From the sequence record NC_052662.1: a stretch of DNA of 64,000 nt; one strand, written 5' to 3'. This DNA is from Escherichia phage Mt1B1_P17. The notes beneath the pieces are model-generated. The model worked only from the letters and a program-made list of their open reading frames with translations, made no database searches and was not told the DNA's origin. The position numbers and the translations under genes are program-made. Below are positions 4,484 through 22,184 of this stretch, one piece after another (within the stretch, counting starts at the first letter, position 1; every line of letters starts with the position of its first letter).

Positions 4484-4484
4484 C

Positions 4485-4672: not shown

Positions 4673-4810
4673 TTATTTTACTTCCCAAACGGAAAATTCG
4701 CTGCCTGTTGGGATCATTTTTTTAATCTTGTTTGCTGCCGCTACCAGGTCAACGGCTTGTACTGTAATAATATAACCAATTGTCGAGGCTGTTGCGTTGA
4801 AAGTTTTCAT
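4673..4810 (-). CDS. small protein, about 45 aa (below track cut-off)
   Basis: ATG at 4810 with RBS AAAGGGCAA and 5' hairpin GGCGGGATTAATCCCGCC upstream. Confidence 0.4.
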   Translation of the reverse strand: MKTFNATASTIGYIITVQAVDLVAAANKIKKMIPTGSEFSVWEVK

Positions 4811-4854
4811 TATATTGCCCTTTAATACAGGCGGGATTAATCCCGCCTTGTTGA

Positions 4855-5025
4855 TTACTCTTCATTGTCGCCGTTATAGTATTCAATGCCGTTTTCATCG
4901 GTTACGGTGATGTTAACGCCACCGATAGCAACACGATCACGGGCAAACGTCATAGCTTCATTTAAATCTTCAGACCAAAAAATATTGTGACCTTTGCGCG
5001 ATACATAAAACATAGTCGGGATCAT
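4855..5025 (-). CDS. hypothetical early protein, about 56 aa
   Basis: Track ORF N-terminus (YHIGRRNGPP) is translated hairpin; start set to internal Met. Confidence 0.4.
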   Translation of the reverse strand: MIPTMFYVSRKGHNIFWSEDLNEAMTFARDRVAIGGVNITVTDENGIEYYNGDNEE

Positions 5026-5110
5026 GATTTGTTTCTCTTCTGTTATGAGCGGTGGACCATTCCGCCGCCCTATGTGGTAAACTTTACTACGTTGTTTGCG
5101 TGCTGTCAAA

Positions 5111-5395
5111 TTATTTTTTAATGTTTTGCCCTACAAAATTGATCACTTCCTTAAGCTGTCTCTCTGTCATGATCGTACCTGGTAACTCTTCTTTAATTTC
5201 TTCCGGTAAATAGATATTACCGCGCCAGGTTAACAAACAACCGTTTTGATCTTCGCAGATAGAATAAGAAAACATCCACTCGCAATCATTTTCAAGCTCC
5301 CAAAAACACAAAAAGTCTTCTTTCCCTAAGTTTTCAACGGTTAAACATAATCCGCGACGTGCTGCATAATTAGTTAGGCTTTTTGTAATTTTCAT
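5111..5395 (-). CDS. hypothetical early protein (94 aa)
   Basis: ORF; RBS; cassette 5418..5472 upstream. Confidence 0.5.
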   Translation of the reverse strand: MKITKSLTNYAARRGLCLTVENLGKEDFLCFWELENDCEWMFSYSICEDQNGCLLTWRGNIYLPEEIKEELPGTIMTERQLKEVINFVGQNIKK

Positions 5396-5417
5396 GATTT
5401 TTCTCTCTTCTTGTGAG

Positions 5418-5472
5418 CGGCACCATTGCCGCCCTACAAGATATATATTATCAGACTAGGCGGACTTGTCAA
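5418..5472 (-). promoter_or_regulatory. early promoter cassette: TTGACA-N16-TAATAT plus 5' stem-loop GCGGCAATGGTGCCGC
   Basis: -35 at 5467..5472, -10 at 5445..5450, hairpin 5418..5433. Confidence 0.6.
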
Positions 5473-5473
5473 A

Positions 5474-5584
5474 CTATTTTTTCTTTTTCTTTGCTTCCAA
5501 CCGTCTAAGGTTACGGCTTGACTTATTGCGCAAGGCGCTTAGATCGTCGTACCCTTTCCATGCTTGCATATCTTTCGGATTCAT
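5474..5584 (-). CDS. small basic protein, about 36 aa (MNPKDMQAWKG...KKKKK)
   Basis: Internal Met with strong RBS AAGGGGGAT; weak call. Confidence 0.3.
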   Translation of the reverse strand: MNPKDMQAWKGYDDLSALRNKSSRNLRRLEAKKKKK

Positions 5585-5594
5585 GTTATCCCCC

Positions 5595-5873
5595 TTAACG
5601 ATTATAAACATTATGGATGGCTTCAAAGGCAAGATGACCATAAGCCGCCAAATCGGGATTGATCCAAGCGTTATCCAACATCGTTTCAAGGACTGTGGAA
5701 TCATCGTATAAAGCATCATAGAAATCTGCACGGATGATCGTTTCAATGTCGTCCGGTGTTAGTTTGTCGTTCAACTTGCACACTGTTTCAACGTCAACAC
5801 CAATTTTCCAATTTTGTAAATTAGTGGTTAACATTGTTTTCATTTCTTCGGTTGTTAATTTAACGATGGTCAT
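5595..5873 (-). CDS. hypothetical early protein (92 aa)
   Basis: ORF; RBS AGAAGAGAG; TTGACA promoter and 5' hairpin GGGGCGACAAGCGCCCC upstream. Confidence 0.5.
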   Translation of the reverse strand: MTIVKLTTEEMKTMLTTNLQNWKIGVDVETVCKLNDKLTPDDIETIIRADFYDALYDDSTVLETMLDNAWINPDLAAYGHLAFEAIHNVYNR

Positions 5874-5953
5874 GATTTTTTCTCTCTTCTGTTAGGCGGG
5901 GCGCTTGTCGCCCCTATGTGATACATCTTATCAGGTTGATTCAGCTTGTCAAA

Positions 5954-6115
5954 CTATTTGTTAGCCGGATTATATGCCAGGACCGCGCCACTTGCTTTCA
6001 CGCTTTCCGCTTCATAGTTGCGCAGATCGTTTTCTGTAAGATTGAGCGCGATCACTTCCTCGATCTCAACGCCAGCGGCAAGGGCGATCTCTTTGATAAT
6101 ATCTGTTGTTTTCAT
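5954..6115 (-). CDS. hypothetical small protein, about 53 aa
   Basis: Internal Met (MKTTDIIKEI) with RBS AAGGTG. Confidence 0.4.
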   Translation of the reverse strand: MKTTDIIKEIALAAGVEIEEVIALNLTENDLRNYEAESVKASGAVLAYNPANK

Positions 6116-6127
6116 GGTGTGCACCTT

Positions 6128-6247
6128 ATAAGATGATTGATAAGATAGTGACAACGAAAGCGATTATACTGATGGCAAATGTCATCTTTTTACCTTCGGA
6201 TACTGCCGGATTCTCTACCGTGTATTCTACTGTGTACTTGCTCATCG
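6128..6247 (-). CDS. small membrane protein, about 39 aa (C-terminal hydrophobic helix)
   Basis: ATG at 6247 with RBS; TTGCAA-N18-TATTTA promoter and 5' hairpin upstream. Confidence 0.4.
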
Positions 6248-6343
6248 TGTAATCCTCTCGTTTGCTTTGGGAACTATTCCCGCCGCCCTATGAATTAAAT
6301 ATACACTATCTCAAAATGATTGCAAGCCTTTTTCTAAATTATT

Positions 6344-6628
6344 TTATGCAGTAAACAAACCATCATTTACAACGGCGGCGATGATCTCCCGTGCCATTGA
6401 TTCAGGGAAAGGGGCGCTATAGTCCTGGCTTGTCTCATCGGTATCGGTGATCCAATGATAAGCTAACGAGTAAAAGCCTTTACTAACTGTTTTCAGTGAG
6501 ATGATGATCACTCGGTCAAGCTTATTGGTGAATGTTGCCGTTAATGTGTTACCCTCCTGCGTCATGTTGGACAAGTAAGCGAGATCATTAATCAGGGAAA
6601 ACATTAGCACGGTGTTAGCTTTACTCAT
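6344..6628 (-). CDS. hypothetical early protein, about 94 aa
   Basis: Start moved to internal Met (MSKANTV) after the hairpin; RBS GAGGATG. Confidence 0.5.
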   Translation of the reverse strand: MSKANTVLMFSLINDLAYLSNMTQEGNTLTATFTNKLDRVIIISLKTVSKGFYSLAYHWITDTDETSQDYSAPFPESMAREIIAAVVNDGLFTA

Positions 6629-6699
6629 GATTGCATCCTCAAAGGGGCGCGGCACCATTGCCGCCCTACACGATAACTATAACACAATGTAAAACAGGA

Positions 6700-6906
6700 T
6701 CAACCTTTATTTTTCCACGGTGTCAGCTTGTTAATCATTGGTGATAAATAGCGTTTACCAACGTAAAACAGTACGCCAACTGATGCAACGGCGGCGACCT
6801 CATGCAAGGAGGAAGGACGCGCGGTGTCATAGTAGGTACCAATAATAGCAATAGCGGCTACTGCGGCAATGTCTGTAATAATTTTTTCTTGTTTTGTTGT
6901 GATCAT
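6700..6906 (-). CDS. small membrane protein (68 aa)
   Basis: Hydrophobic stretches; RBS; 5' hairpin GGCGGGGAATAGTTCCCCACC upstream. Confidence 0.45.
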   Translation of the reverse strand: MITTKQEKIITDIAAVAAIAIIGTYYDTARPSSLHEVAAVASVGVLFYVGKRYLSPMINKLTPWKNKG

Positions 6907-6991
6907 AATATTTACCTTTTTGTATGGTGGGGAACTATTCCCCGCCTGATGTAATACAGTTTAACAGGTCCGGTTATGGTGTCAACCACTT

Positions 6992-7177
6992 TTAAAGATA
7001 TTTTATGCTAATGACGTTTTCAGGTTTTACCTTGTTATGATGTGCATCAACATAGATCAAACCATCGTCAGAAAAGCCCAGGATCACACCCTGCGCGATA
7101 AAACCATACGCATCACGGTAACGCACGGCTATTTTTAATGTTGCGTTATAGGCTGTTTTAAGCTCGCTTAAAGTCAT
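6992..7177 (-). CDS. hypothetical early protein (61 aa)
   Basis: ORF; RBS GAGGATAAACA. Confidence 0.45.
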   Translation of the reverse strand: MTLSELKTAYNATLKIAVRYRDAYGFIAQGVILGFSDDGLIYVDAHHNKVKPENVISIKYL

Positions 7178-7206
7178 CTTTGTTTATCCTCTACATATAA
7201 AAAGAA

Positions 7207-7225
7207 AGGGCGCTTGGTGCGCCCT
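7207..7225 (-). terminator. terminator hairpin copy 3 (AGGGCGCTTGGTGCGCCCT)
   Basis: Identical to 1776..1794; T-tract on minus strand. Confidence 0.45.
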
Positions 7226-7233
7226 TGTTATGT

Positions 7234-7380
7234 TAATCCTCTAAATCCATCCAATTATATTTGTCACTCTTCCCGCGCTTTGTTTTATTGCGCTTGTCGC
7301 CTTTGCGGATCACTTCCTCGTTCCAGGCCTTGCGGATCTTGGAAGATTGAATTTTTTCTGCGCGATTAGATGTATTCATT
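7234..7380 (-). CDS. small basic protein, about 48 aa (K/R-rich)
   Basis: ATG at 7380; RBS GAGGAAAC; TTGACA-N17-TAAATT promoter and 5' hairpin upstream. Confidence 0.4.
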
Positions 7381-7458
7381 TTGTTTCCTCTTCATATGAG
7401 CGGCACCATTGCCGCTATATTGTTAATTTAAACTGTTTTGTAAAATTGTCAAGGTTTA

Positions 7459-7812
7459 TCATTCATAAGAGCAAGCAAGGATCACGCCTGCAATATAAAG
7501 CCAATAATTTTCCCTTTCTCGTTGGATTTTATCATCGCTGCTATTCTCTTTAATGTATCCCCAGGATGTTAACAAACGATCAATTTCCCAATATTCGAAA
7601 GCTATATTAATATCTGATGGCAAGCCTTGTAACCATGATGCAAGTGCTTTAACAATACTATAATTAAAACGTGATTGATTATCAGGGTACCAGTACTCGG
7701 AATTAAAACGGCGCATCAATTCCGCGATCTTCTCTTTTTCGGTTGTAATACCATAATCATTAAAATCGATAGCGGCAAGGATGTACTCTTTAATTGCATT
7801 TTGTGCTTTCAT
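7459..7812 (-). CDS. hypothetical early protein (117 aa)
   Basis: ORF; RBS; cassette 7831..7887 upstream. Confidence 0.5.
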   Translation of the reverse strand: MKAQNAIKEYILAAIDFNDYGITTEKEKIAELMRRFNSEYWYPDNQSRFNYSIVKALASWLQGLPSDINIAFEYWEIDRLLTSWGYIKENSSDDKIQRERENYWLYIAGVILACSYE

Positions 7813-7830
7813 GGTCTTTCTCTCTTTTTA

Positions 7831-7887
7831 GCGGGAACTATTCCCGCCCTACGTGTAACAGTTTACTGAAAATTAAATCCGTGTCAA
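7831..7887 (-). promoter_or_regulatory. early promoter cassette: TTGACA-N16-TAAACT plus 5' stem-loop GCGGGAATAGTTCCCGC
   Basis: -35 at 7882..7887, -10 at 7860..7865, hairpin 7831..7847. Confidence 0.6.
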
Positions 7888-7890
7888 GCT

Positions 7891-8112
7891 TTATTTTGTT
7901 ACTACCATTTGGTACCCTGTTTCAATGTTAGTAAATACTGTTATCCCGTCCTGGCGTTCACTCATTAGCATACAAGGCGCTAACATCCTTTCTACTGCCT
8001 TGCACTCATTGTAAACGGCGGTTATGTCTCCTGCGGCCTTGTCTTCTGTGGTGAATGTATCGTTTATGTAAACTTGACCAGCGACAACGGCGACAATAGC
8101 GAAAGTGATCAT
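7891..8112 (-). CDS. hypothetical protein (73 aa), hydrophobic N-terminus
   Basis: ORF with RBS. Confidence 0.4.
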   Translation of the reverse strand: MITFAIVAVVAGQVYINDTFTTEDKAAGDITAVYNECKAVERMLAPCMLMSERQDGITVFTNIETGYQMVVTK

Positions 8113-8185
8113 GATGTCTTTCTCTTTATGTGTTTCTATTAGTTGATATTACAGCAATTCGCAGATTAGTTTTTAGCAATTCGTG

Positions 8186-8404
8186 CTATTTACTCATAAC
8201 AGTATCGAAAACAAATTTTTCTTTGTTGTCAAAGCTCACGTATCCGATTCGACCACGCAAGCCGCAAGTAGTGCCGTATTCGTAACCGTCAAGACCTTTA
8301 ACCTTCCAATCCACGCCCATTAAAACCGCATTATATTTCTGACCAACTACAAACGCGCCACCAGTTGATTCAATGCAAACAACTTTAATTTTACGGATTG
8401 CCAT
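8186..8404 (-). CDS. hypothetical early protein (72 aa)
   Basis: ORF; 5' hairpin TATAGCGCC-TTACAAT-GGGCGCTATA upstream. Confidence 0.45.
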   Translation of the reverse strand: MAIRKIKVVCIESTGGAFVVGQKYNAVLMGVDWKVKGLDGYEYGTTCGLRGRIGYVSFDNKEKFVFDTVMSK

Positions 8405-8485
8405 TTTCTTTCTCTCTTTCTGGTGATTGGTTTCTCTTCTCTATAGCGCCCATTGTAAGGCGCTATAACGAAAAGTCAACGATTA

Positions 8486-8650
8486 TTTTTTAAGGCTTAA
8501 AGTACCTAACTTGTCAGCATGACGTAGACCAGGGAAGATCCATTTTCCTGATTCATCTTTTACAGGGGCTTTAAACGTAGCGCCCAGGTTGGCGGCGTTA
8601 ACTTTACGGGCAACGTTGCGAGCGGCTTCACGGGTAGCGAAAGTGATCAT
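8486..8650 (-). CDS. small protein, about 54 aa (below track cut-off)
   Basis: ATG at 8650; RBS GAAGAGGAAAAC; TTGCAA-N16-TAAACT promoter and 5' hairpin upstream. Confidence 0.4.
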
Positions 8651-8741
8651 GGTGTTTTCCTCTTCTCTTTGTTAGGCGGTGGACCATTCCGCCGCCTTGA
8701 TGTAATACAGTTTACTTTATTTTTGCAGTATTGCAAGCGTT

Positions 8742-8954
8742 TTATGAAATAATCGTCAAAGTAAAATTGTAATCACCTGATTGGTACAATACTTTATCAC
8801 CGAAAGTTCCAACACGTTTAACATTGCAATATATACCCATAACACTTTTTACATCTTTGATATTCTTCACGCCTGTAATATCTTTATTAAAATGATCGTG
8901 ATCAGAAAATAAAACTTGACTTGCATTTTTTAACAGTGTACGGATATTAGCCAT
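8742..8954 (-). CDS. hypothetical early protein (70 aa)
   Basis: ORF; TTGACA-N16-TAAACT promoter and 5' hairpin upstream. Confidence 0.45.
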   Translation of the reverse strand: MANIRTLLKNASQVLFSDHDHFNKDITGVKNIKDVKSVMGIYCNVKRVGTFGDKVLYQSGDYNFTLTIIS

Positions 8955-9044
8955 CGTGATAATCTCTCTTCTGTTGTGAGCGGCACTATTGCCGCCCTAC
9001 GTAATACAGTTTACTCTTTTTCTTTCCCGTGTCAACAATCTTTT

Positions 9045-9272
9045 TCAGATTAATTCATCCAGGCATAACAGGCGATCAACGTTGAGATCTGTTAGGCTGA
9101 TGGTTGGCACCTGGTAGGATTCGATGTACTCGACGCTTGCATATTCCCCAAAATTAGCAACAGCCCACTTATTCAAGATCTCACATACATCATTAATCTT
9201 TTTGTTTGTTACAACTGCTACAACCTGGGAATAGCCAACGGTGCCGGATACGCGAACAATATTGATAGCCAT
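9045..9272 (-). CDS. hypothetical early protein (75 aa)
   Basis: ORF; promoter/hairpin cassette upstream. Confidence 0.45.
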   Translation of the reverse strand: MAINIVRVSGTVGYSQVVAVVTNKKINDVCEILNKWAVANFGEYASVEYIESYQVPTISLTDLNVDRLLCLDELI

Positions 9273-9363
9273 AATCTTTAATCTCTCTGTTGTGAGCGGG
9301 AAACCATTTCCCGCCTTATGTGATACATCTTACACTAATTTTAAACGTTGTCAACTGTTTTTA

Positions 9364-9603
9364 TTACATTCCAACCATCGCGGCGCGGATCGCTGTAGTG
9401 CTATACTTGAAACCGTCTGGAGTTTTATCTTGTCCAGTTTGTTCCAGGAATAACATCATATCACGGGCAGCATCATTACGATTAGTATTAGCGGCGATAA
9501 ATTCTTTCGCCAACCGATATAATGATTCGTCATTATTAATCCAAAGGCTTACATTCCAGTGAGTTTTATTTTTGTGACCTAAGAACATTTTTGATTTAGC
9601 CAT
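9364..9603 (-). CDS. hypothetical early protein (79 aa)
   Basis: ORF; promoter/hairpin cassette upstream. Confidence 0.45.
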   Translation of the reverse strand: MAKSKMFLGHKNKTHWNVSLWINNDESLYRLAKEFIAANTNRNDAARDMMLFLEQTGQDKTPDGFKYSTTAIRAAMVGM

Positions 9604-9692
9604 GATATTAATCTCTTTTTCAGTGAGGCGGGAAGTATTCCCGCTCTCTATGTAATACAGTTTACTCTTTTTATTCGTGCTGTCAATGCTTT

Positions 9693-10058
9693 TTATAAAT
9701 CTTTTTTACGTTTAACATCACTCGCATGACTGTATACAGTGATCCCATTGTCACGGCAAAAACGGGAAAGATACGCGCCGCGTGAAAACTCTTTACCTTC
9801 CATATTAATAACCTTGCTAAATTCTTCCAGGGCGACGGTATCAAAATGATCACCATAGCCATATTGAAACGGAACGTTAACCACCTCGATCAGTTTACCG
9901 CCGATCTCAACGTCAACCATTAAAGAAAAATATGTGTTACCGTAGGACTGTTGAAACCAGCGACGGGCGCTAATGTGCACCGCTTCAATGCTGGATAATT
10001 CAATTTTAGCCGTGTTAGCCAGGGTAGCATAAGCGGAAACATTGATATTAATAGCCAT
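9693..10058 (-). CDS. hypothetical early protein (121 aa)
   Basis: ORF; TTGACA-N17-CATAAT promoter and 5' hairpin upstream. Confidence 0.5.
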   Translation of the reverse strand: MAININVSAYATLANTAKIELSSIEAVHISARRWFQQSYGNTYFSLMVDVEIGGKLIEVVNVPFQYGYGDHFDTVALEEFSKVINMEGKEFSRGAYLSRFCRDNGITVYSHASDVKRKKDL

Positions 10059-10155
10059 GATGATAATCTCTCTTTTTGGTTAGTGGGAAGTATTCCCGAT
10101 AAAAGTTATTATGCTTATACTATCACTCATTGTCAATAGTATAAGACTAAAACTT

Positions 10156-10335
10156 TTAACGATAATCGTTATAGGCTTTATTGACCTGGCGAATGTAACA
10201 TTCGAAAGCAAGATCAATGTATTCGTATTCACGCACATAATCACCATAGGTCACTACATACATTTTTAAAGTTTCCTCATAAGCCAGGAGGATCGAATCT
10301 AAACCTATAATCTCAGTTTTTGCAATGATAGCCAT
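10156..10335 (-). CDS. small protein, about 59 aa (below track cut-off)
   Basis: ATG at 10335; RBS; TTGACA-N16-TATAGT promoter and hairpin GGCGGCAATGGTGCCGCC upstream. Confidence 0.4.
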   Translation of the reverse strand: MAIIAKTEIIGLDSILLAYEETLKMYVVTYGDYVREYEYIDLAFECYIRQVNKAYNDYR

Positions 10336-10418
10336 GATGTTAACCTTTTATTGTTGGCGGCACCATTGCCGCCCTACGTGATAAACTATACCAGAAGTTT
10401 AAACAGTGTCAACCGTTT

Positions 10419-10781
10419 TTATTCGTAAATTTTACCGCTTTCGGCCCATACCATAACGCGGCGCATACTATCCCAAGTGTTTTGATCCAGGTTTAAGCCG
10501 TGCAACTCTTCGGTACTTCCCAGACCAGGTACCGCTTTGTTGTAAGTCGCATATAAGCGCCCTTGATACTCATACACCAGAGTAAGATCCGTTTGAATCA
10601 TCTTTTTAAGCATAGCATTAAGCATCATATTAGCGGCATGTTGATCACGTTTTAGCGGTAACATATCAATAAGGGCGCGATAAGCTGAAACATGGATATC
10701 AACCGTTTCACGTGGTAAATTTTTCATATCATCGCGGAAAGATACCAGATTAAACATGATAGTATTGATTTGCTTGCTCAT
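10419..10781 (-). CDS. hypothetical early protein (120 aa)
   Basis: ORF; cassette 10803..10863 upstream. Confidence 0.5.
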   Translation of the reverse strand: MSKQINTIMFNLVSFRDDMKNLPRETVDIHVSAYRALIDMLPLKRDQHAANMMLNAMLKKMIQTDLTLVYEYQGRLYATYNKAVPGLGSTEELHGLNLDQNTWDSMRRVMVWAESGKIYE

Positions 10782-13857: not shown

Positions 13858-14391
13858 TCATCTTTGCGGTATTTTGTCTGGGAAAAGTATTTCTATCAGT
13901 TTGTTATGATATTTACCTAAAAGATTCTGTCCTTTCCAGGTGGCAGGGTTTAGCACCCCTGGTTCATACATCCCCATTCCAATTCCGTATACCTTATCGT
14001 AAGGACTTGCTTCAACAAATGTTTTGTATTGATATAGACGTAAATCGGCATACAAGTCTGGATTCTGTACATACTTCAAGCATAAACCTCGCATAACAAT
14101 ACGCTCACGATTCTCTTCCCATATTTTGTTATCGAAACCTGCTACTGCCCTACCCATACGTTTGTAATAAGCTTGTATCTTCTCATCTTCTCGTTTTAAG
14201 CTATGAGTCAGAATAGCTTGTGCGTTGTTGTGATCGTTAAAGAGCAAAGCTTTACGCCACATCATATATTGTTCTACACAGTTAAATGTTTCATTGTAAC
14301 CTGGTTCGGTTTCTGTAAAGGGTGCAATATACCAATTACTAAACACATCTTTATGTGAAAAGAAGAATACATATTCATCAGTTATTCTCAT
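13858..14391 (-). CDS. NADAR / YbiA-like (DUF1768-type) domain protein
   Basis: Motifs FFF...FSNWY, ...MMWRKALLFND, GRAVAGFD, LVEASPYD..YGIG match the NADAR family pattern from memory; not confirmed by search. Confidence 0.55.
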   Translation of the reverse strand: MRITDEYVFFFSHKDVFSNWYIAPFTETEPGYNETFNCVEQYMMWRKALLFNDHNNAQAILTHSLKREDEKIQAYYKRMGRAVAGFDNKIWEENRERIVMRGLCLKYVQNPDLYADLRLYQYKTFVEASPYDKVYGIGMGMYEPGVLNPATWKGQNLLGKYHNKLIEILFPDKIPQR

Positions 14392-14567
14392 TTTTTCATG
14401 CCTCCTAAGACTTCAGCTTGCCCGTCTTGAAAAGCTTTCATCAGAACTATCTTAAGATTGACTTCCAAACGTTCTTCATCCTCTCTATAACAATCCAACA
14501 CTGCTTTAAGTTCATCATAGTGGTTCAGAATAGGTTTAAAGATTTCATGATCTGCTAAACGTGCCAT
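14388..14567 (-). CDS. hypothetical protein, about 59 aa
   Basis: Internal Met with RBS AAAGGAG. Confidence 0.4.
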   Translation of the reverse strand: MARLADHEIFKPILNHYDELKAVLDCYREDEERLEVNLKIVLMKAFQDGQAEVLGGMKK

Positions 14568-14580
14568 AGTTTCTCCTTTG

Positions 14581-14946
14581 TTAGTCCATCCACCAGTAGC
14601 CATAAACTGCGTCTGCGTCGATGAGTTTGTGTTTGTTGTTCCGCATGTAGTCTAAGATAAGTAGACGTTTATTGTATCTGGAGAGATTATGACCCTCTTT
14701 TCCGCCATAGTCAAAATATTTTGCAAGATCTTTGCACTCAAACAAAATTAGTTCGGGAGTTTCTTCACACTGGTCTGTCTGGTACACTTGACGAATGATC
14801 ATGTATACATCATCGTCTTCCGCTAAATGCTCTACTGGTCCACATCCAGCAGGAACAAATTCATAGTCCCATCTGATCAGATGTTTCTCTACTGCTTCAA
14901 AGAAGTCCATTCTTTCGTTGCGCATAATTTGAACGTCAACTAACAT
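14581..14946 (-). CDS. hypothetical protein (121 aa)
   Basis: ORF; RBS CAGGAGGAAAC. Confidence 0.45.
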   Translation of the reverse strand: MLVDVQIMRNERMDFFEAVEKHLIRWDYEFVPAGCGPVEHLAEDDDVYMIIRQVYQTDQCEETPELILFECKDLAKYFDYGGKEGHNLSRYNKRLLILDYMRNNKHKLIDADAVYGYWWMD

Positions 14947-15947
14947 GTTTCCTCCTGTAATATTCCACCATAAAGTTTATAAATGTTTTGTATTGATGCC
15001 AGACAAGATAGCTCCACTGTTTCTGTGTAGCCGTCTGGCATAGCATATTTGCTCACTGCTTCTGTGTCTAACACCTTTTTGCAATACTTTTCTGAATTTT
15101 TGCACTGCTTCACAGTGGGGAACTGCCACACTTGAACTTGTCTCATAGTAAACACATTGCGGCTATTCTGTTCTTTGATACGGCGATCACTACTATTGGC
15201 AATACCAAACTTCAGTGCACAAAGAATACCATCTTCATCATAAATATGATTAATGTAACATTGTTGTTGGTTTTGGCCCCCGCACTGCGGACACCCACTC
15301 CCCTTATGTAGCAAACCATCTGCACGCCCTATCTGTTCCCCGTGCTCCTTACATCCATATTTAAACTTACCCATTGTTGAAGGTTTACCGATCCATCCTA
15401 CCCATATATATCCTCTCCTTTCTACTTCCTTTCTTGTTCTATAGGTGGTCTGATCCTCTGTGTATTTGTAACTTGTAGAACAGCGGCAAGGGAGACACCC
15501 ACGTTTAAGATGACTTCCGGTAGCATAGAATTTACCATCACACACCCCAGCTTCCACATATTCATCATGAGAGCAAACAGGACATTCAACCATCCATACT
15601 ATATCACACCCTTTACGTTCCCCTGTATTGGTGAAAATAGTGCCTTCCTTAAATTTACCTACCTTCATAAAATCTTGTATGTGTTGCTGGTCTGGAATAG
15701 TGATAGCTTTGCTTCTCTTTTTCGAACGTTCCCTGTAGGCGCACTTAGGACAACCTCGACCATCTTTAAAACTGTGAAACGTTGTAGTATTCCATTCATG
15801 ACCATGCTCACAACGATTGATCATCTTCGTATGCACACCTTTATCTTCTCCATACGTGCCGAGAATGGTAATCCCTTTAGCCTCAGCTATCGGCTTACAT
15901 TCTTCCATATATGTTTCAATACTCTTCTTTACTGACATATCTAACAA
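14940..15947 (-). CDS. Cys-rich (multiple CxxC zinc-ribbon-like) protein with C-terminal T5orf172-type domain
   Basis: C-terminal FGIANSSDRRIKEQN...PDGYTET motif shared with CDS 20722..21708; several CxxC pairs in N-terminal half. Confidence 0.5.
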   Translation of the reverse strand: MLDMSVKKSIETYMEECKPIAEAKGITILGTYGEDKGVHTKMINRCEHGHEWNTTTFHSFKDGRGCPKCAYRERSKKRSKAITIPDQQHIQDFMKVGKFKEGTIFTNTGERKGCDIVWMVECPVCSHDEYVEAGVCDGKFYATGSHLKRGCLPCRCSTSYKYTEDQTTYRTRKEVERRGYIWVGWIGKPSTMGKFKYGCKEHGEQIGRADGLLHKGSGCPQCGGQNQQQCYINHIYDEDGILCALKFGIANSSDRRIKEQNSRNVFTMRQVQVWQFPTVKQCKNSEKYCKKVLDTEAVSKYAMPDGYTETVELSCLASIQNIYKLYGGILQEETC

Positions 15948-15967
15948 TTCTCTTCCTATTAAACTGA

Positions 15968-15998
15968 AATCAATATAACAAAACCCGCCGAAGCGGGT
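15968..15998 (-). terminator. intrinsic terminator AAACCCGC-TTCG-GCGGGTTT plus T-tract
   Basis: Perfect 8-bp stem; minus-strand U-tract TTTTGTTATATT. Confidence 0.55.
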
Positions 15999-16016
15999 TT
16001 AGCTATTTGTGCTGTA

Positions 16017-17156
16017 TCAGAATACGCTACCCAGTGTGGTAGATCGCTGCGTTACAGGCTCCAGCACCACTCGCAGAGTGTTTCCTGGTGTAGTGCTCAT
16101 CACCAGGATCTTACCACCTTCAATCAGATCACAAGTTAGACCATCAGCAGTTGCACATAGATCAATATGTGGGTCGCCATCTTCGTCTAGGATAACATAA
16201 CTATTGGTTTCCATTGCTTCCACTTCATCATCTTTCAAGCTTTGTAGATAGATGTTCAAGGAACAAGCACCCGACAAAAACTTAGTAGGGGTAAAGTCGT
16301 GCCAGTTATTGATCCAATTCACCTTCAAGGTTTTGCCATTAGCTACAATAGAAGCCACATTCCATTTAGCATCATTGCCTAAAGAAATACCCATCATTTC
16401 AAGACATTCTTTAAAAGTCATTTTTGGATAGAAATTCAATTCTTCTACAATGCCTTGAATAACATCGAAAGACAACTCTGTGCTAACATCCCATAAACGT
16501 TGGAAGTTATCTACGTGTTTTTTATTTACCAAGTTCTTATCCAAGTAATCTAACATAGTTTCACTAGACAGTTTATCGTAATTGAAACTGTAGTAGATAC
16601 GACTAGGACGGTTTACAAAATATTCCGAGATATAGCCACTATTTTTAGTGAGGATGTAAAGTTTATTCCCACTTCCTGTTCCATCCAACAAGGTCAACAG
16701 TGCTTCCTGATCTTCTTTCTTAGCGTACACTTTATCAAATTCGTCAAATAAAACAACAGCACGATCTGTAATTTTACTCATAAATTCTAAGAAGCCAGCA
16801 TCTGTGTAAGGCTGTGTAACCAAAATGGTTGGAATACCTAAACCTTCTGTGGACATTAGAGACATGCTAATCAGTTTAGCTAACATCGTCTTACCACTGC
16901 CTTTTGTCCCTGTCAGTAACACCCCAGTATTTTTACCTTCTTTACTACGACGAGCAAATGTTTTAATAACATGTGCGGCGCGATCTTTAGTTTCCCCATA
17001 AAGAGTGTTCGGAAGAGAGAAACTTTCACCACGCACTAAAGAGTAGTTACCGTGCGGATCGCAGTTGACAACCCAAACTCCAGCAGGAAGTTTATTAGCT
17101 TCAACACCATATTCCTTATTTACAACAGCCACATCTCCAAAAATAGTGTATTTCAT
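16017..17156 (-). CDS. AAA-type P-loop ATPase
   Basis: Walker A GTKGSGKT and Walker B VVLFDEFDK. Confidence 0.6.
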   Translation of the reverse strand: MKYTIFGDVAVVNKEYGVEANKLPAGVWVVNCDPHGNYSLVRGESFSLPNTLYGETKDRAAHVIKTFARRSKEGKNTGVLLTGTKGSGKTMLAKLISMSLMSTEGLGIPTILVTQPYTDAGFLEFMSKITDRAVVLFDEFDKVYAKKEDQEALLTLLDGTGSGNKLYILTKNSGYISEYFVNRPSRIYYSFNYDKLSSETMLDYLDKNLVNKKHVDNFQRLWDVSTELSFDVIQGIVEELNFYPKMTFKECLEMMGISLGNDAKWNVASIVANGKTLKVNWINNWHDFTPTKFLSGACSLNIYLQSLKDDEVEAMETNSYVILDEDGDPHIDLCATADGLTCDLIEGGKILVMSTTPGNTLRVVLEPVTQRSTTLGSVF

Positions 17157-17512
17157 TAGAACGTTTCTCCTTTTAAAATAATTACTGTAAACTTTGCAGT
17201 TTTTTCACTCTTAATATTCTTGACTAATAAGTATTCTCCTCCAGGGGCATCTTTATATTGTTTAATAGCTACTATTTCATTTTTGCAAGTGGCTATAATC
17301 GAATAAAAAGGACGTTCCGTGTTATCTTCTTTTCCTGTATATGCCTCAACATCTTTACACTCTTCTAGAACACCATTTCCAGGTGTATAGTAAAACTTGT
17401 TGCCTGTGATCACAACATCTTTACCAATATCTGTTTTAACTGCTACAAATTTTTGAGCGTAAGTGGTGAAGCTTACGGTAGCCAGCAATGTGGCTAAGAT
17501 TAATTTTTTCAT
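17156..17512 (-). CDS. secreted protein with signal peptide (MKKLILATLLATVSFTTYAQ)
   Basis: Start set at internal Met with RBS AGGAGGG. Confidence 0.5.
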   Translation of the reverse strand: MKKLILATLLATVSFTTYAQKFVAVKTDIGKDVVITGNKFYYTPGNGVLEECKDVEAYTGKEDNTERPFYSIIATCKNEIVAIKQYKDAPGGEYLLVKNIKSEKTAKFTVIILKGETF

Positions 17513-17523
17513 AAACTTCCCTC

Positions 17524-17688
17524 CTATTCCCACAACATACAAATCGCAGCGACAAACATGTTAGCAACAGCCGCACCAAGAACTATAAACATCGCCAGTT
17601 CAGAACAATATTCACCAACCAGAGGGGATACTATTGCACAGAGTAGTCCCAATGTCAAACACAAGTTGATGATGAAGTTTAAAATCAT
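17524..17688 (-). CDS. small membrane protein, about 54 aa (below track cut-off)
   Basis: ATG at 17688 with RBS AAGGAGAG; hydrophobic throughout. Confidence 0.35.
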   Translation of the reverse strand: MILNFIINLCLTLGLLCAIVSPLVGEYCSELAMFIVLGAAVANMFVAAICMLWE

Positions 17689-17697
17689 ATTCTCTCC

Positions 17698-17862
17698 TTA
17701 CAACCAACCCTTTGCCTGGTAGCCTTTAGAAAATCCATCTTCCCATTCTTCGAATTCCTTTTTGTGTGTCATTGGACAGTATGGATTTACTTTATTAAAC
17801 ATACCAAACTTGAACCCTGCGGTATACCCTTTCTTAAAAGCTATTGATTCTAAAGAGATCAT
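17698..17862 (-). CDS. hypothetical small protein, about 54 aa
   Basis: Internal Met with RBS AGAGGAG. Confidence 0.4.
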   Translation of the reverse strand: MISLESIAFKKGYTAGFKFGMFNKVNPYCPMTHKKEFEEWEDGFSKGYQAKGWL

Positions 17863-17875
17863 ATTCTTTCTCCTC

Positions 17876-18127
17876 TTAGAACTCGACAATGATTTTGTCT
17901 AAGTGTTCTGCTTCAACTTGGGATAATGTTAACACCTGCACCAAACCTCTGTCAATGCCTAATTTGATCACTTGCAAATAATCACCGAAAAGATCAGAGA
18001 TTTCAATCTGGTGTTCAGTAACCACCACGACCTCGTTACCCTTGGTATACTCTCTCCAGATTCGTCCACACTTGTAAATGAAATCTTTCTGGTCTTCACT
18101 GATCATCTTAGGCTTAACGCTTAACAT
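17876..18127 (-). CDS. hypothetical protein (83 aa)
   Basis: ORF in operon; start overlaps upstream stop. Confidence 0.45.
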   Translation of the reverse strand: MLSVKPKMISEDQKDFIYKCGRIWREYTKGNEVVVVTEHQIEISDLFGDYLQVIKLGIDRGLVQVLTLSQVEAEHLDKIIVEF

Positions 18128-18465
18128 TACATACTCCCGTATTCTGGTTCAATATTATGTTTACGACAAATGGTATCCCAACGTTCATTACCAAAACTTC
18201 TTCCATGTAGAGCGTTAAATGCGAAATGCTCTGCCAACCACAATACTACATCATCAGGATCTGTGTCAAGAGGAATTCTAAACTCTCGATCATAACGCAT
18301 ACGCAGAATAAAATCCTTATCATCTTCAAGGAGATACATGTGACTTTTAGCCCGTGATGCCAAATCAAAGAAAGGAGGCTCATCTTTCCAAACGTGACGC
18401 TCAACTTCAACACCATGATCAACTACCAGAGTAGCGATTACCTCTCTCATTTCTTTACTAAACAT
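18127..18465 (-). CDS. hypothetical protein, about 112 aa
   Basis: Start at internal Met with RBS GGAGGT. Confidence 0.45.
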   Translation of the reverse strand: MFSKEMREVIATLVVDHGVEVERHVWKDEPPFFDLASRAKSHMYLLEDDKDFILRMRYDREFRIPLDTDPDDVVLWLAEHFAFNALHGRSFGNERWDTICRKHNIEPEYGSM

Positions 18466-18475
18466 ATTACCTCCA

Positions 18476-18652
18476 TTAACCAATTAGTTCAACCGATTTG
18501 CAAATGTAAATCCAAACTGGAGTGAGCATAAGAGCTATACCGAATACACAATTCCACTTAATTCCCATTTCCTCTATTAGAGACATGATTAAGCCAACAG
18601 CACTAATAATCAGATAGATCCCTAAGAAAGCCATTGTGAAGAATTCAGACAT
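18476..18652 (-). CDS. small membrane protein, about 58 aa
   Basis: Two hydrophobic segments; start at internal Met with RBS. Confidence 0.4.
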   Translation of the reverse strand: MSEFFTMAFLGIYLIISAVGLIMSLIEEMGIKWNCVFGIALMLTPVWIYICKSVELIG

Positions 18653-18654
18653 AT

Positions 18655-19011
18655 TTAGCTCCAAAGATTATCAAAATAACTAGCGAATAAAAGACGGCCC
18701 TCTAATCGTGCCTTCCTTTGATCTTCAGCATACACGATTTCTGGATTACCACTATCAATAAAAGCATTCTCCATCTTTTCTAAAATATTTAACCACTCTC
18801 TTCTACCTGTCTCCTCTTCTTCATCTGTATACGGCGCACTTCTATTTGGATACAAAACACGCATCAGTTTAGTGGGGATCATGACAAACGTGCTATTGTT
18901 TGCCTTCTCACGGAAGGCTTTAATTCCTGCATAGATTACCTTCCCCAAAGCTGCATCCAAATCCATCAGGTCACTTTCTTCTATTTGAATTTCATCGTGT
19001 ACAATTTTCAT
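18655..19011 (-). CDS. hypothetical protein (118 aa)
   Basis: ORF; RBS GGGAGAAGG. Confidence 0.45.
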   Translation of the reverse strand: MKIVHDEIQIEESDLMDLDAALGKVIYAGIKAFREKANNSTFVMIPTKLMRVLYPNRSAPYTDEEEETGRREWLNILEKMENAFIDSGNPEIVYAEDQRKARLEGRLLFASYFDNLWS

Positions 19012-19295
19012 CGTGCCTTCTCCCGATCTGCATCTAATTTCAACAAGAAAGCTGTATACTCTTCCGAACCTTGGTGTAAAAACATGCGATAAGAGCTTAC
19101 CAGTTTCTTGGTCGTTGTATAACGTTCCATTTCCCCAACAACACCTCCACCTAGTGTGTAGAGCACAATACCTTCAACTCCAACATGGGTTACTACTTCA
19201 ACCAAGTCTGTGTTATCCCAATGATAGTTAGGTGACACAATAAGATCGCCAACTGCCAGTTTAATGTTTGCTACTTCATTTTGTGAATAATACAT
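19008..19295 (-). CDS. hypothetical protein, about 95 aa
   Basis: Start at internal Met (MYYSQNEV) with RBS AGAGGAG. Confidence 0.4.
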   Translation of the reverse strand: MYYSQNEVANIKLAVGDLIVSPNYHWDNTDLVEVVTHVGVEGIVLYTLGGGVVGEMERYTTTKKLVSSYRMFLHQGSEEYTAFLLKLDADREKAR

Positions 19296-19332
19296 TTGGT
19301 TCTCCTCTCTTAATTGATGGAAGTAGTATACC

Positions 19333-19824
19333 TTACCACATAATCTCGCGCAACTCTTTTTCTTCTTTGAAATTACGTAAGTTTTCCAGTGCACGATTTA
19401 GGTCTTCTTCCGTCTCTGCTTTCTGGACTTTTTCCATCATTTTCGCAACAATATTTTTCTTAACTTGCAAATCTGGAACAGGCATACGTTTTTCCATTTC
19501 ATAAGCTTCTCGTTTATGACGTTCCTCCATCTCTGCTTTTTCTTTCACCCAATCCGCCTCGTCCATTGCACCTTTGCAGACACAAGTGTAACCTTTAATA
19601 GTATAATCACCATGTTCAATACCAGGTTGAAGAGCTAAAGCTTCATTACCACAATACGCGCACAACGGACGACCTGGCATTTTCAAAGTTTTGGTAGCCT
19701 TAGCGCCACATTGACTATCCCAGCTTGTTTTATAACTGGAACCGTTGTCTCCGTGAGAACGACCAACCAAGAAGTTACGGAAGAAACCCATAGCACGTTC
19801 GTCAATGTAATCAGGGTAAGCCAT
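19333..19824 (-). CDS. hypothetical Cys-containing protein (163 aa; CAYCGN...CVCKG)
   Basis: ORF; RBS AAGGAG. Confidence 0.45.
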   Translation of the reverse strand: MAYPDYIDERAMGFFRNFLVGRSHGDNGSSYKTSWDSQCGAKATKTLKMPGRPLCAYCGNEALALQPGIEHGDYTIKGYTCVCKGAMDEADWVKEKAEMEERHKREAYEMEKRMPVPDLQVKKNIVAKMMEKVQKAETEEDLNRALENLRNFKEEKELREIMW

Positions 19825-19836
19825 TATATTCTCCTT

Positions 19837-20130
19837 TCACATTAAGACACGTTTTGTGTCGATGGGTGCATTATCAAACATGTTAAGAACATTGTCAAGC
19901 AGTTTTACTAATTCATTTGTAATTTGTTCTTTTGAACGGGAGGAAGTGAGCACTTTGCTTTCACCAACGATATGCATAACTTTTATAGGGGCATCTAAAA
20001 TAATGTTGTGTTGACGATCCTCTTCAAAAGAAGCCAACCATTTCTCATTGTTACCGTGCAAGGCTACAATCACACCAAAACCGTTAATTGTTTCAGAAAT
20101 ATTCTTAGTTGCTAAAGTAATGTTCATCAT
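19837..20130 (-). CDS. hypothetical protein (97 aa), first gene of leftward operon
   Basis: ORF; RBS AGAGAGG; promoter immediately upstream. Confidence 0.45.
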   Translation of the reverse strand: MMNITLATKNISETINGFGVIVALHGNNEKWLASFEEDRQHNIILDAPIKVMHIVGESKVLTSSRSKEQITNELVKLLDNVLNMFDNAPIDTKRVLM

Positions 20131-20156
20131 CTACCTCTCTTGTTAATGTTCATACA

Positions 20157-20214
20157 TGATACCTGAAAATAATTTCAGATCAAGTGTTGACATGCTTTTT
20201 AGTCCTGTTAAGAT
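20157..20214. promoter_or_regulatory. back-to-back divergent sigma70-type promoters
   Basis: Leftward: -35 TTGATC (20178..20183) and -10 TATCAT (20157..20162); rightward: TTGACA (20187..20192)-N16-TAAGAT (20209..20214). Confidence 0.5.
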
Positions 20215-20244
20215 CAACTCATACAAAACGAGAGGAGAAAACAA

Positions 20245-20670
20245 ATGCAAAACATGACTTGGACCGAAGCTAAAGAAGCGATGCAGAATGGCAAACGTGT
20301 GAAGCACGAATACTTCTGTAGTGATGAGTGGTTTGAGATGCAATACGGTGTTATTCTGGATGAGCATGGCTACAATATGTCAAACTGGTTCCGAGGGGAA
20401 GCTTGGCAGGAACAGGGTTGGTTTGTAATTGAAAAAGAAGACAGTAAGGAAGAAGGCGTGTTGTCTAATGTAGAACGCGAGATGAGGGAAACAAAGATAC
20501 CTGCTTTGGATTTTGTATACCTGGAAGAACTTGTGGCAGCCTCTTTTGTAGCAGGGAATCTTTGGAAGACGCCTGTTAGCCGACTGGAGAATCAAAATAA
20601 CCCGTCTGCTCGTAATCACAAGCTTTATAAGGGCAAAAACCACAACAAACTAAAGAAAAGGAAGAAATAA
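20245..20670 (+). CDS. hypothetical protein (141 aa; basic C-terminal tail)
   Basis: ORF; RBS AGAGGAG. Confidence 0.5.
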   Translation: MQNMTWTEAKEAMQNGKRVKHEYFCSDEWFEMQYGVILDEHGYNMSNWFRGEAWQEQGWFVIEKEDSKEEGVLSNVEREMRETKIPALDFVYLEELVAASFVAGNLWKTPVSRLENQNNPSARNHKLYKGKNHNKLKKRKK

Positions 20671-20721
20671 TCCATCCTTGTATTAGTGCCATAGAGCGTG
20701 ATTACATCAAGGAGATTTTTA

Positions 20722-21708
20722 ATGATTAATGAAGAACAATTTGTAAAAGTTCCTATGTGGATTCTAAAAATAAGCCAAGTAAACGGGCATAAATTTACAG
20801 ATAGTGCTAAAAACCTTTACTGCTATTTGAGAGGGTTTGATCGTGCATTTCCCTCTTACGCTAAGATAGGCGATGTTTTTGGCATAACACCAAGAGCAGC
20901 AGAAGAAAGGGTTAAGAAATTGCTCGAAATGGGATTAATTATAAAAGATGCACGACCAGGAAGCTCTAACCTTTATCGAGTGCTTGATATTCCAAAAGGA
21001 GAATCATCACTACCTGATCCTTCTGAGAAAGAAGAAGCTATTGTTAAAGCTGTTCAGGAACAGCTTCCCCTTATGGAATGGAAGAACTTTAAAAAATGGT
21101 ACTCACCATCTGGTAATGAATACACCGCTACACTGCCAGCCGTTGAAATCTATAGCTATATAGCTGGATTCAATGAACAAGGGCAAGAATGTTACGCTAC
21201 TCAAAAAACATTAGCTAATATTGGAATGGTTAGTGATCGTCAGGTACGCAATATTATAAATATGTTTGTTGATATGGGAGTTCTTTCTGTAGAGGCACGC
21301 CACGGTCAAACATCACTCTATAAAACCTTACCCTTTACAGAGATGAATGTTAAAAAGCAAAAAAGAGTAAAAGAGATTCCGTACACTGAAAACCAACAAT
21401 CAGATTGGTGTTTTTATATACAAAAATTGGTTTCTCCCTTTTATACCTGCCTGAAAGCAGGGATTACGGTAAACATTGATCGTAGAATCAAAGAGCAAAG
21501 TAAAAACAGCATGTTTAAACATTATCTACTTGACAGTTTTAGTGGAGATTATGCTACTATTTTCTCTTTGGAGAAAGAAGTTAAAAAAGGTTTTAACCGC
21601 TCTTTATGCTTAAAAGAGTGGCTGCCAGATGGTTATACCGAAACATATAATCTAGAAGACTATGAAAGTATAAAAAATTTTGTTAGTGAGAAATTGATTA
21701 AGGAGTAA
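20722..21708 (+). CDS. putative DNA-binding protein: two winged-helix-like repeats plus C-terminal T5orf172-type domain
   Basis: Internal sequence repeat (GFDRAFPSYAKIGDVFGIT... and ECYATQKTLANIGMVSDRQVR...) and C-terminal GITVNIDRRIKEQ...PDGYTET shared with CDS 14940..15947. Confidence 0.5.
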   Translation: MINEEQFVKVPMWILKISQVNGHKFTDSAKNLYCYLRGFDRAFPSYAKIGDVFGITPRAAEERVKKLLEMGLIIKDARPGSSNLYRVLDIPKGESSLPDPSEKEEAIVKAVQEQLPLMEWKNFKKWYSPSGNEYTATLPAVEIYSYIAGFNEQGQECYATQKTLANIGMVSDRQVRNIINMFVDMGVLSVEARHGQTSLYKTLPFTEMNVKKQKRVKEIPYTENQQSDWCFYIQKLVSPFYTCLKAGITVNIDRRIKEQSKNSMFKHYLLDSFSGDYATIFSLEKEVKKGFNRSLCLKEWLPDGYTETYNLEDYESIKNFVSEKLIKE

Positions 21709-21710
21709 AC

Positions 21711-21860
21711 ATGATTATCTACAAAAACAAGTTCACTGGTTGTCTCCGTAAATTTATCGATAAGAAAGGGTATGTTTCTCTTGACAACGGGGTTACATGG
21801 ACAGAGAATGGCACTTCAGAACAACTGATCAAAGCTTTGCCTTACTACGAGGAGGTTTAA
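21711..21860 (+). CDS. small protein, 49 aa (below track cut-off)
   Basis: ATG 3 nt after upstream stop; RBS AAGGAG; ends just before next gene. Confidence 0.3.
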   Translation: MIIYKNKFTGCLRKFIDKKGYVSLDNGVTWTENGTSEQLIKALPYYEEV

Positions 21861-22184
21861 ATGTCAAACAGTTTGTTTAGCGTGTCAATTGCACCACGTG
21901 TCAACATCCGTTGTCAGTTTGTTACTTTACCTGGTGTAACGCATATCACATTAGAATACGATCCTCGCTCACGAGACAACCCAATCACAGGGAAAATTGA
22001 TTGTGCTTATGGAGACTTTGTTATGGATCACCAAACCCTCTTATGCTGTGTGCAACGCTTACAGGCAGGATCTTTATACATCTTTAAGAAAACAGTGTTC
22101 CAAGAGATTGCTCAAGCAGTTGAAAGCGGTATGGAGACTCTTAACGTTATGATTGAAGCAGCCAACCAGAAGGAGGTTTTATGA
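21861..22184 (+). CDS. hypothetical protein (107 aa)
   Basis: ORF; RBS GAGGAGG. Confidence 0.5.
   Translation: MSNSLFSVSIAPRVNIRCQFVTLPGVTHITLEYDPRSRDNPITGKIDCAYGDFVMDHQTLLCCVQRLQAGSLYIFKKTVFQEIAQAVESGMETLNVMIEAANQKEVL

Follow-up and report, generated by a model that had tools for sequence, protein, structure and literature searches.

The DNA analysed here is a 64,000-nucleotide (nt) stretch of Escherichia phage Mt1B1_P17 (sequence record NC_052662.1), referred to throughout as the window. It is a Phapecoctavirus segment (phAPEC8-like, Stephanstirmvirinae); an 8-kb query around the two genes of interest returned 120 phage records, the best match being BI-EHEC at 97.7%. A first-pass annotation, made from the sequence alone, had drawn attention to open reading frames (ORFs) at 14940..15947 and 20722..21708, and both were found there. 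These two genes, termed gene 1 and gene 2, share a C-terminal block that is predicted to be a nuclease domain and carry different DNA-binding front ends. Gene 2 occupies a clean insertion in the phage genome, and its two front-end modules, or heads, are nearly identical at the DNA level to parts of the replication initiator genes of Escherichia coli phage satellites. The features of the locus are as follows (coordinates, strand, description).

14940..15947, minus strand: gene 1, coding sequence of the CapR-zinc-finger/T5orf172 endonuclease family; maximal ORF from TTG 15947, 335 amino acids (aa)
15285..15836, minus strand: DNA-binding region of gene 1, CapR-type treble-clef zinc-finger repeats, about aa 38-222 (Pfam and Cys motifs)
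14943..15284, minus strand: predicted T5orf172/GIY-YIG-type nuclease domain of gene 1, about aa 222-335 (alignment A2; 151 bits with a hidden Markov model)
20673..21713, plus strand: insertion of 1,041 bp holding gene 2 (blastn breakpoints against tuntematon, phAPEC8 and PNJ1809-36)
20722..21708, plus strand: gene 2, coding sequence of a predicted two-headed chimeric nuclease of 328 aa (head 1, head 2 and T5orf172 domain)
20681..21035, plus strand: satellite-identical segment 1, a 41-nt repA leader with ribosome-binding site (RBS), followed by head 1 (aa 1-104/105)
21081..21341, plus strand: satellite-identical segment 2, head 2, the second winged helix (aa ~119-210), common to the Muut, Inny and BI-EHEC proteins
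21376..21705, plus strand: predicted T5orf172/MUG113-type GIY-YIG nuclease domain of gene 2, aa 219-328
20131..20244, no strand: strand-switch intergenic region (ORF orientation; sign change of GC skew near 20 kb)

The likely start of gene 1 is ATG 15938, which gives a protein of 332 aa in agreement with the database homologue P0051. Gene 2 starts at ATG 20722, with the RBS AAGGAG 7 nt upstream, and GTG 20698 marks the ORF maximum only. The motifs of the C-terminal domain are CYI, KFGI (at 246), DRRIK (at 254), the invariant Glu E286 and GYTET in gene 1, and FYI (at 231), KAGI (at 245), DRRIK (at 253), the invariant Glu E284 and GYTET in gene 2.

The shared C-terminal domain

The C-termini of the two proteins were 36% identical over 80 aa (BLASTP, E=5e-8), and with the gene 2 domain alone as query, 100 members of the gene 1 family were hit at E<1e-3. 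In an alignment of 40 sequences (A2), assembled from matches to full-length gene 1, the K-x-G-I, Arg, Glu and D-G-x-T-E-T columns were invariant. The similarity that had first suggested a common block is therefore real and not a low-complexity coincidence. Among the ORFs of the window, only gene 1 and gene 2 matched the domain profile.

The assignment of this block to the T5orf172 family, with its GIY-YIG-like fold, held for the domain and its family but not for the whole proteins, which scored below the Pfam T5orf172 (PF10544) gathering cutoff of 20 bits (14.1 bits for gene 1 and 15.0 bits for gene 2, the range for gene 2 being 15.0-16.8). Taken alone, the gene 2 domain passed the Pfam sister family MUG113 (23.6 bits against a cutoff of 22.3), and an orthologue, P0067, reached the T5orf172 cutoff (20.1 against 20). 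Across the domain family, Pfam matches at E<=0.1 were to T5orf172 in 22 of the 40 sequences and to MUG113 in 21, with at most one for any other family. An AlphaFold2 model of the shared domain (pLDDT, the predicted local distance difference test, 90.9) displayed the beta-beta-alpha-beta-alpha-alpha order of the GIY-YIG core. Searches of the PDB with the domain (Foldseek) and with a sequence profile gave nothing significant, so that support for the fold is moderate rather than strong; scans with NCBIfam and PADLOC produced nothing useful. Judged from the profile matches and the model, placing the block in the GIY-YIG superfamily as a T5orf172/MUG113-type member appears essentially right. The idea that it reflects a chance or low-complexity similarity between unrelated proteins, for which the sub-threshold whole-protein scores and the negative Foldseek and PDB sequence searches might be cited, is refuted by the BLASTP match, the search with the C-terminal domain, alignment A2, the Pfam family matches and the fold evidence, and is left with next to no probability.

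The Arg and Glu of catalytic type were invariant in 40/40 sequences; in A2 these are R37, the Arg of DRRIK, and E66, which corresponds to E284 in gene 2 and E286 in gene 1. When the family was compared by hhalign with Odn, a nuclease of vibriophage ICP1, its invariant Glu aligned weakly with Odn E180 (E=1.3e-3, probability 19%), with the K-x-G-I and Arg motifs in register in the same alignment. The corresponding comparison with I-TevI was uninformative. A catalytic Glu in the GYTET loop was considered and rejected, since Odn E180, located in 'DTEQRIHEEL', sits in the helix after beta3 and maps to the invariant 'aEk' Glu. Canonical GIY-YIG nucleases (I-TevI, Slx1, the UvrC N-domain and T4 Seg) have the same beta-beta-alpha-beta-alpha core fold and, like the window domain, a Tyr in beta1, 'xGI' in beta2, an Arg opening helix 1 and, in the helix that follows beta3, a Glu; the window proteins also resemble I-TevI in being built modularly, as 'beads on a string'.

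The front ends proved to be as first described, with zinc-finger repeats (PF21817) in gene 1 and two winged-helix repeats (HTH_36) in gene 2; a KilA-N domain, for which a check had been proposed, was not present. Predicted site-specific nucleases, one of the roles suggested at the outset, is the best reading of both genes from their sequences.

Gene 2, its satellite-derived heads and their iterons

The 1,041-bp insertion is missing from most Phapecoctavirus genomes and is flanked by conserved small ORFs, one gp065-like (20245..20670) and one VOG5739-like (21711..21860). Gene 2 DNA was found in only four phage records, those of BI-EHEC, Muut (two records) and Inny, and a tblastn search of 50,697 records with head 2 plus the nuclease part returned full-length matches in BI-EHEC, Muut and Inny only. 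The exact gene 2 protein of the window is otherwise on record on a single 1-kb contig. Head 2 and the nuclease domain were 95-98% identical to the copies in the Justusliebigvirus phages Muut and Inny, while cross-genus identity around the gene was 68-75% or undetectable for the upstream backbone genes and 83-88% for the downstream ORFs. These comparisons point to gene 2 as an accessory, horizontally moving gene that appears to have moved recently between genera. A co-conversion tract downstream of it was also considered; being weakly supported by the 83-88% of the downstream ORFs, it was not relied on.

The front end of gene 2 matched Pfam HTH_36 in two stretches (43.6 bits), and its PHROG matches were replication initiation proteins. 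In a protein search, residues 1-104 were 97-100% identical to E. coli proteins of ~190 aa annotated as 'transcriptional regulator', and head 1 was identical at all 104 aa to the RepA-like proteins of four loci (L007, L013, L014 and L022). At the DNA level, 20681..21035 was 99.2% identical to E. coli chromosomal islands. Head-1 sequence was detected at >=90% identity, partial matches included, in 469 of 5,426 complete E. coli genomes, and the full allele, that is a match covering >=80% of the query, in 172. One such island, in CP024240, is ~15 kb in length and lies between tRNA-Thr and a tyrosine integrase; it carries replication-initiator-like, capsid-like, tape-measure and tail/baseplate genes, and CP024240 is included in the satellite table of Barth, Dunham and Seed (2023). 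A full virion gene set was not found in the source islands, in which integrase, capsid-like, tape-measure and baseplate genes were seen.

Alignment A1 displayed a sharp chimera, in which aa 1-104 of gene 2 follow the satellite protein and the remainder, from ~aa 108 on, follows the Muut and Inny proteins. Those two proteins have N-domains unlike window head 1 and unlike each other, each of them 98-99.5% identical in DNA to other E. coli islands. Head 2 (21081..21341) was 98.5% identical in DNA to loci in 225 of the 5,426 genomes. Its counterpart in a second RepA class, represented by P0025 (88% aa identity), is aa 30-122, and head 2 is near-identical over aa 122-202 to a RepA-like protein encoded at locus L023. 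The P0025 class is located where repA lies in the same family of satellites, and it is very widespread: the index lists it in 3,152 collection blocks. The C-terminal halves of the satellite RepA proteins are not carried in gene 2.

Judging from this near-identity, both heads were copied recently from the N-terminal DNA-binding domain of satellite RepA-like initiators, head 1 from that of the ~15-kb E. coli satellites and head 2 from that of a second satellite replicon class, which is more widespread. The first-pass annotation had proposed phage or host DNA as the target; because the heads are near-identical to E. coli satellite initiator domains, they point instead to satellite DNA, rather than to phage or general host DNA. 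What matters most about gene 2, an accessory insertion with satellite-initiator heads, had been missed.

Each satellite contains a tandem array of semi-palindromic iterons of 22-23 nt, situated 1.3-1.9 kb upstream of repA. Four families were distinguished: class A, belonging to window head 1 (ACAGAAnnnTGTTA, 4-5 copies); class B, belonging to Muut (TATCAAnnnTGATA, 4 copies); class C, belonging to Inny (GTAACGAnAnGTTAC); and class D, belonging to head 2 (GGAAATGAGTTCC, 3-5 copies). With the motifs defined from one member per class and a sampling of satellites that was not random, the four head classes paired with the four iteron families in 14/14 satellites, and cross-class arrays were not seen. 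Physical linkage within related islands could contribute to this match. Counts across the E. coli genomes (139 for iteron A, 172 for the head-1 allele and 118 for the joint 2-kb module) are consistent with the pairing of heads and iterons. Records aligning from just past the iteron array through repA were considered as exceptions to it and rejected, as they carry other head classes.

No iteron array of type A, B, C or D was found in the 64-kb phage window. The sole match to the motif-D core, GCGGGAAACCATTTCCCGC, is an isolated palindrome at 9299-9311 that forms a GC-rich hairpin; it is present in a single copy and was rejected as an array. In the satellite of E. coli RM9131 (L008:3119-3234), a second tandem array of five copies of GGGGTAGTTCACTATGAGCTA, with a period of 22-23 nt, lies beside the class B iterons, and the motif recurs, once or twice, in satellites of other classes.

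The junctions of head 1 were located on both sides. The 5' crossover falls within a conserved leader and RBS present in satellite repA alleles and in the phage genes alike, and the 3' switch falls at a short AAGAAG microhomology in the linker. For this one head class three different linker junctions were observed, in the window, in BI-EHEC and P0002, and in P0001 (Justusliebigvirus-like contigs); in the window, satellite sequence runs through ...SLPDPSEKE, unlike in BI-EHEC and P0001. Some satellite RepA proteins already have the linker found in the phage proteins. Together, the three junctions and the phage-type linker in satellite RepA indicate repeated exchange.

Related modules were also seen outside these phages. 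Modularity extends to the satellite RepA-like proteins themselves (comparison of L007:14042-14611 with P0025 and P0013), the C-terminal half ending in ...DSLPF occurring with class A or class D heads and that ending in ...DFDIPF with class A or D-like heads. P0035, a 312-aa protein from an ENA metagenome, joins a head-2-type N-domain to an unrelated C-terminal region without a T5orf172 domain, and is another shuffling product of this DNA-binding module. The L023 locus (2866-10503, E. coli 2016C-3878) is an island of ~7.6 kb between duplicated thiamine pyrophosphate riboswitches at thiM. It carries an integrase, an HNH endonuclease, a serine recombinase and a head-2-type RepA-like gene, without capsid or tail genes, and is a smaller element that shares the replication module of the satellites. 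Lastly, on a metagenomic Justusliebigvirus-like contig (L018:4437-6984) the gene downstream of the gene 2 homologue encodes a UvrD-type helicase with weak Pfam matches to Hint/intein-splicing families, which suggests the presence of an intein.

Gene 1 and the surrounding region

The front end of gene 1 matched Pfam CapR (PF21817) at 83.2 bits (cutoff 24.2) in two to three stretches, the best of them at aa 92-157, with an additional DUF4379 match over aa 38-71. Its Cys pairs comprise CxxC at aa 66, 122, 151 and 219 and CxC at aa 154. The PHROGs match was to phrog_681, 'endonuclease' (1e-64), and several orthologues are annotated 'endonuclease' or 'putative homing endonuclease'. Homologues fell into 139 clusters and were intact in most. 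In all the Phapecoctavirus and Justusliebigvirus relatives that were examined, the orthologue had the same position beside an AAA ATPase gene, and no relative with an empty gene 1 site was found among them. In comparisons with tuntematon and phAPEC8, identity dropped to 56-88% precisely across the body of gene 1, between flanks of 93-100%, and divergence was deepest in the zinc-finger region (56-79%). Orthologues ranged from 332 to 465 aa and contained two to three, four or five CapR stretches.

The combination of CapR and T5orf172 is the architecture of the ICP1 homing-endonuclease family (Netter et al. 2021; Barth et al. 2023), which is known from vibriophage ICP1, T5-like and other phages. 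The ICP1 homing endonuclease genes (HEGs) encoding Gp53, Gp121, Gp130, Gp165 and Gp174 (PMC8096241, PMC10448857) resemble gene 1 in having CapR-type CxxC...CxC repeats with a C-terminal T5orf172 domain, and in their allelic variation of repeat number and mosaic DNA-binding region. The gain and loss of repeats and the mosaicism of gene 1 match what is reported for this family. Unlike the ICP1-type HEGs, which vary in presence, gene 1 was at one and the same locus in every relative examined, and its nuclease domain forms a divergent branch, mostly under the Pfam T5orf172 cutoff. Homing has not been demonstrated for the ICP1 CapR/T5orf172 genes (PMC10448857). On domain content and synteny, gene 1 is assigned to the CapR-zinc-finger/T5orf172 homing-endonuclease family, as a predicted member that is fixed in its locus but hypervariable. 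Its target would be set by the string of treble-clef zinc fingers, which would be under reshuffling among related phages.

A domesticated nuclease or regulator under diversifying selection, fixed in its locus rather than mobile and serving, for example, to exclude competing phages or elements, would also account for the constant position of gene 1 beside the ATPase gene, its intactness in most of the homologue clusters and the concentration of its divergence in the DNA-binding repeats. However, repeated mutual replacement of HEG alleles can give the same pattern, and T5orf172 HEGs have been described as characteristically mosaic and variable in repeat number. We regard domestication as a serious possibility that stops short of being probable.

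Several features of the surrounding region were also recorded. At 15978-16001 on the minus strand, in the gap separating gene 1 from the ATPase stop codon, a GC hairpin and the T run after it resemble a terminator (AAACCCGC-TTCG-GCGGGTTTTGTT), so that transcription of gene 1 may be separate from that of the upstream ATPase gene. Within ORF 14388..14603, identity to PNJ1809-36 falls to 66-76% at 14400-14600 in a stretch that is otherwise ~100% identical, and this dip is another small mosaic patch. Just downstream of gene 2, ORF 21861..22184 (107 aa; 21859-22170) represents a second presence/absence polymorphism, missing in tuntematon, phAPEC8 and BI-EHEC and present in PNJ1809-36 (92%) and Muut (84%).

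Gene 1 and gene 2 had further been described as flanking a divergent promoter region. The strand switch at 20131-20244 does separate them, but the promoter-like matches there are at chance level (6 found, with 6.0 expected from shuffled sequence), and gene 1 lies ~4.2 kb and a dozen genes from the switch, so that the two genes are no divergent pair. A promoter-based link between them was rejected, the shared domain being their only tie. The strand-switch region is context and has no part in the function of gene 1 or gene 2.

Proposed function of gene 2, precedents and significance

In ICP1, a RepA_N-like head directs the T5orf172 nuclease of Odn (Gp88) to the origin of the satellite PLE (Barth et al. 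2021, PMC8263062), and cleavage of the satellite origin has been demonstrated experimentally to depend on the iterons and on E180 (PMC8263062). Odn is the only nuclease of this kind for which iteron-dependent cutting and rescue of the phage have been demonstrated. We consider it probable that gene 1 and gene 2 are both modular endonucleases, in which a shared T5orf172-type catalytic domain is combined with different DNA-binding modules, and that gene 2 is of the Odn kind, directed against satellite origins. By analogy with Odn, the gene 2 protein would bind, during infection of a satellite-carrying cell, the iteron arrays recognised by the class A and class D satellite initiators; its nuclease domain would cut at the bound iterons, and cutting would block replication of the satellite and thereby protect the phage. 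The iterons would then be the actual target of DNA cleavage by gene 2, and the islands would be parasites of this phage.

Odn and gene 2 share the same logic, in that the DNA-binding domain of a satellite initiator is fused to a HEG-derived T5orf172 nuclease. The homology between the C-terminal domain of gene 2 and that of gene 1, a resident CapR/T5orf172 gene, fits this Odn-like kind. The two differ in host, satellites and phage lineage, and whereas Odn has one head, a DUF6945 domain (119.9 bits) that is 42% identical to PLE RepA_N, gene 2 has two HTH_36 heads that are ~99% identical to those of the satellites. The A2 profile did not detect Odn in a HMMER search. With heads of different families and nuclease domains that HMMER fails to connect, gene 2 is not an orthologue of Odn; the two are best seen as a parallel invention, with gene 2 presumably working in an Odn-like manner.

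The family to which gene 2 belongs, satellite-RepA-headed T5orf172 nucleases, has been published as a bioinformatic proposal (Barth, Dunham and Seed 2023). Its members in Muut and Inny have the same architecture, two initiator-type heads and a T5orf172 domain with head 1 matching satellite RepA, and they are syntenic with gene 2, upstream of the VOG5739 ORF, with head 2 and nuclease domain 95-98% identical to those of the window. One of the three representative satellites in that paper, CP022664, encodes the window-type head at 104/104 aa, and by elimination the head-1 class of the window is probably the one published for Mt1B1_P17. According to the 2023 paper, head 2 has no detectable homology to the repA of the matching satellite; here it was 98.5% identical in DNA to another satellite RepA class. 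Iterons are unmentioned in the main text of that paper. The additions made here are the satellite origin of head 2, the predicted iteron targets and the head-swap junctions.

More tentatively, gene 2 may be a two-headed anti-satellite nuclease that can be updated by cassette, in which a constant head 2 addresses class D (GGAAATGAGTTCC), the most widespread replicon class of E. coli satellites, and head 1 is swapped with resident satellites. Replacement of head 1 would occur by recombination with these satellites, through the repA leader and RBS at the 5' side and the linker microhomology at the 3' side. We favour this version less than the general one; targeting by two heads, the iterons predicted as targets and the mechanism of the swap go beyond the statements of the 2023 paper.

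Gene 2 might alternatively be a free-standing HEG that spreads between co-infecting phages by cutting near its own insertion point, with heads that resemble those of satellites but have no anti-satellite role. A presence/absence polymorphism that is cleanly bounded by two conserved ORFs is what such a gene would produce, as are its recent cross-genus move (95-98% identity against 68-75% in the upstream backbone) and the somewhat elevated identity of the ORFs downstream (83-88%), as expected of a co-conversion tract; moreover, the family of its nuclease domain is dominated by HEGs. Yet both heads are 98.5-99.2% identical in DNA to satellite initiator domains, the phages differ precisely in head 1 and each matches another satellite class, which a fixed site in the phage explains poorly, and a matching iteron array was not found in the 64-kb window. 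Mobility and an anti-satellite function are, in addition, compatible with each other. We judge a purely homing role to be improbable.

Gene 2 could also act without cutting, either as a DNA-binding competitor or repressor at satellite or phage initiator sites, or as the phage's own replication initiator. The heads are initiator-type winged helices with PHROG matches to replication initiation proteins, and among GIY-YIG enzymes I-TevI autorepresses. HEG-derived DNA-binding proteins can act as repressors (PMC8096241), and CapR provides the precedent of a domesticated, nuclease-less HEG derivative. Against this, gene 2 has kept a full nuclease domain that is 95% conserved across genera with its invariant Arg and Glu intact, and the C-terminal halves of satellite RepA were not copied into it. 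Its absence from most relatives indicates that it is not the essential initiator of the phage. A non-cutting function is, in our view, rather more doubtful still than homing alone.

Both genes belong to kinds published by the Seed laboratory in 2021-2023, and as the concept and the gene family are already in print the gain made here is incremental. The genome counts of head 1 and head 2 (469, 172 and 225 of 5,426) indicate that phage satellites are abundant in E. coli. To the best of our knowledge, the ways in which virulent coliphages cope with satellites are hardly known. The gene 2 locus supplies concrete predictions in this respect, namely two iteron families and a catalytic residue, E284. 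Phages of the phAPEC8-like group are used as therapeutic candidates, and if the proposed function is correct, possession of a matching nuclease could decide the host range of a phage on satellite-bearing strains, which would be relevant to phage therapy. Gene 2 would then be a natural sequence-programmed nuclease used by virulent phages against their parasites and, should the two-headed, swappable version also hold, a single protein would confer immunity to two replicon classes, with a specificity that can be re-programmed in the field.

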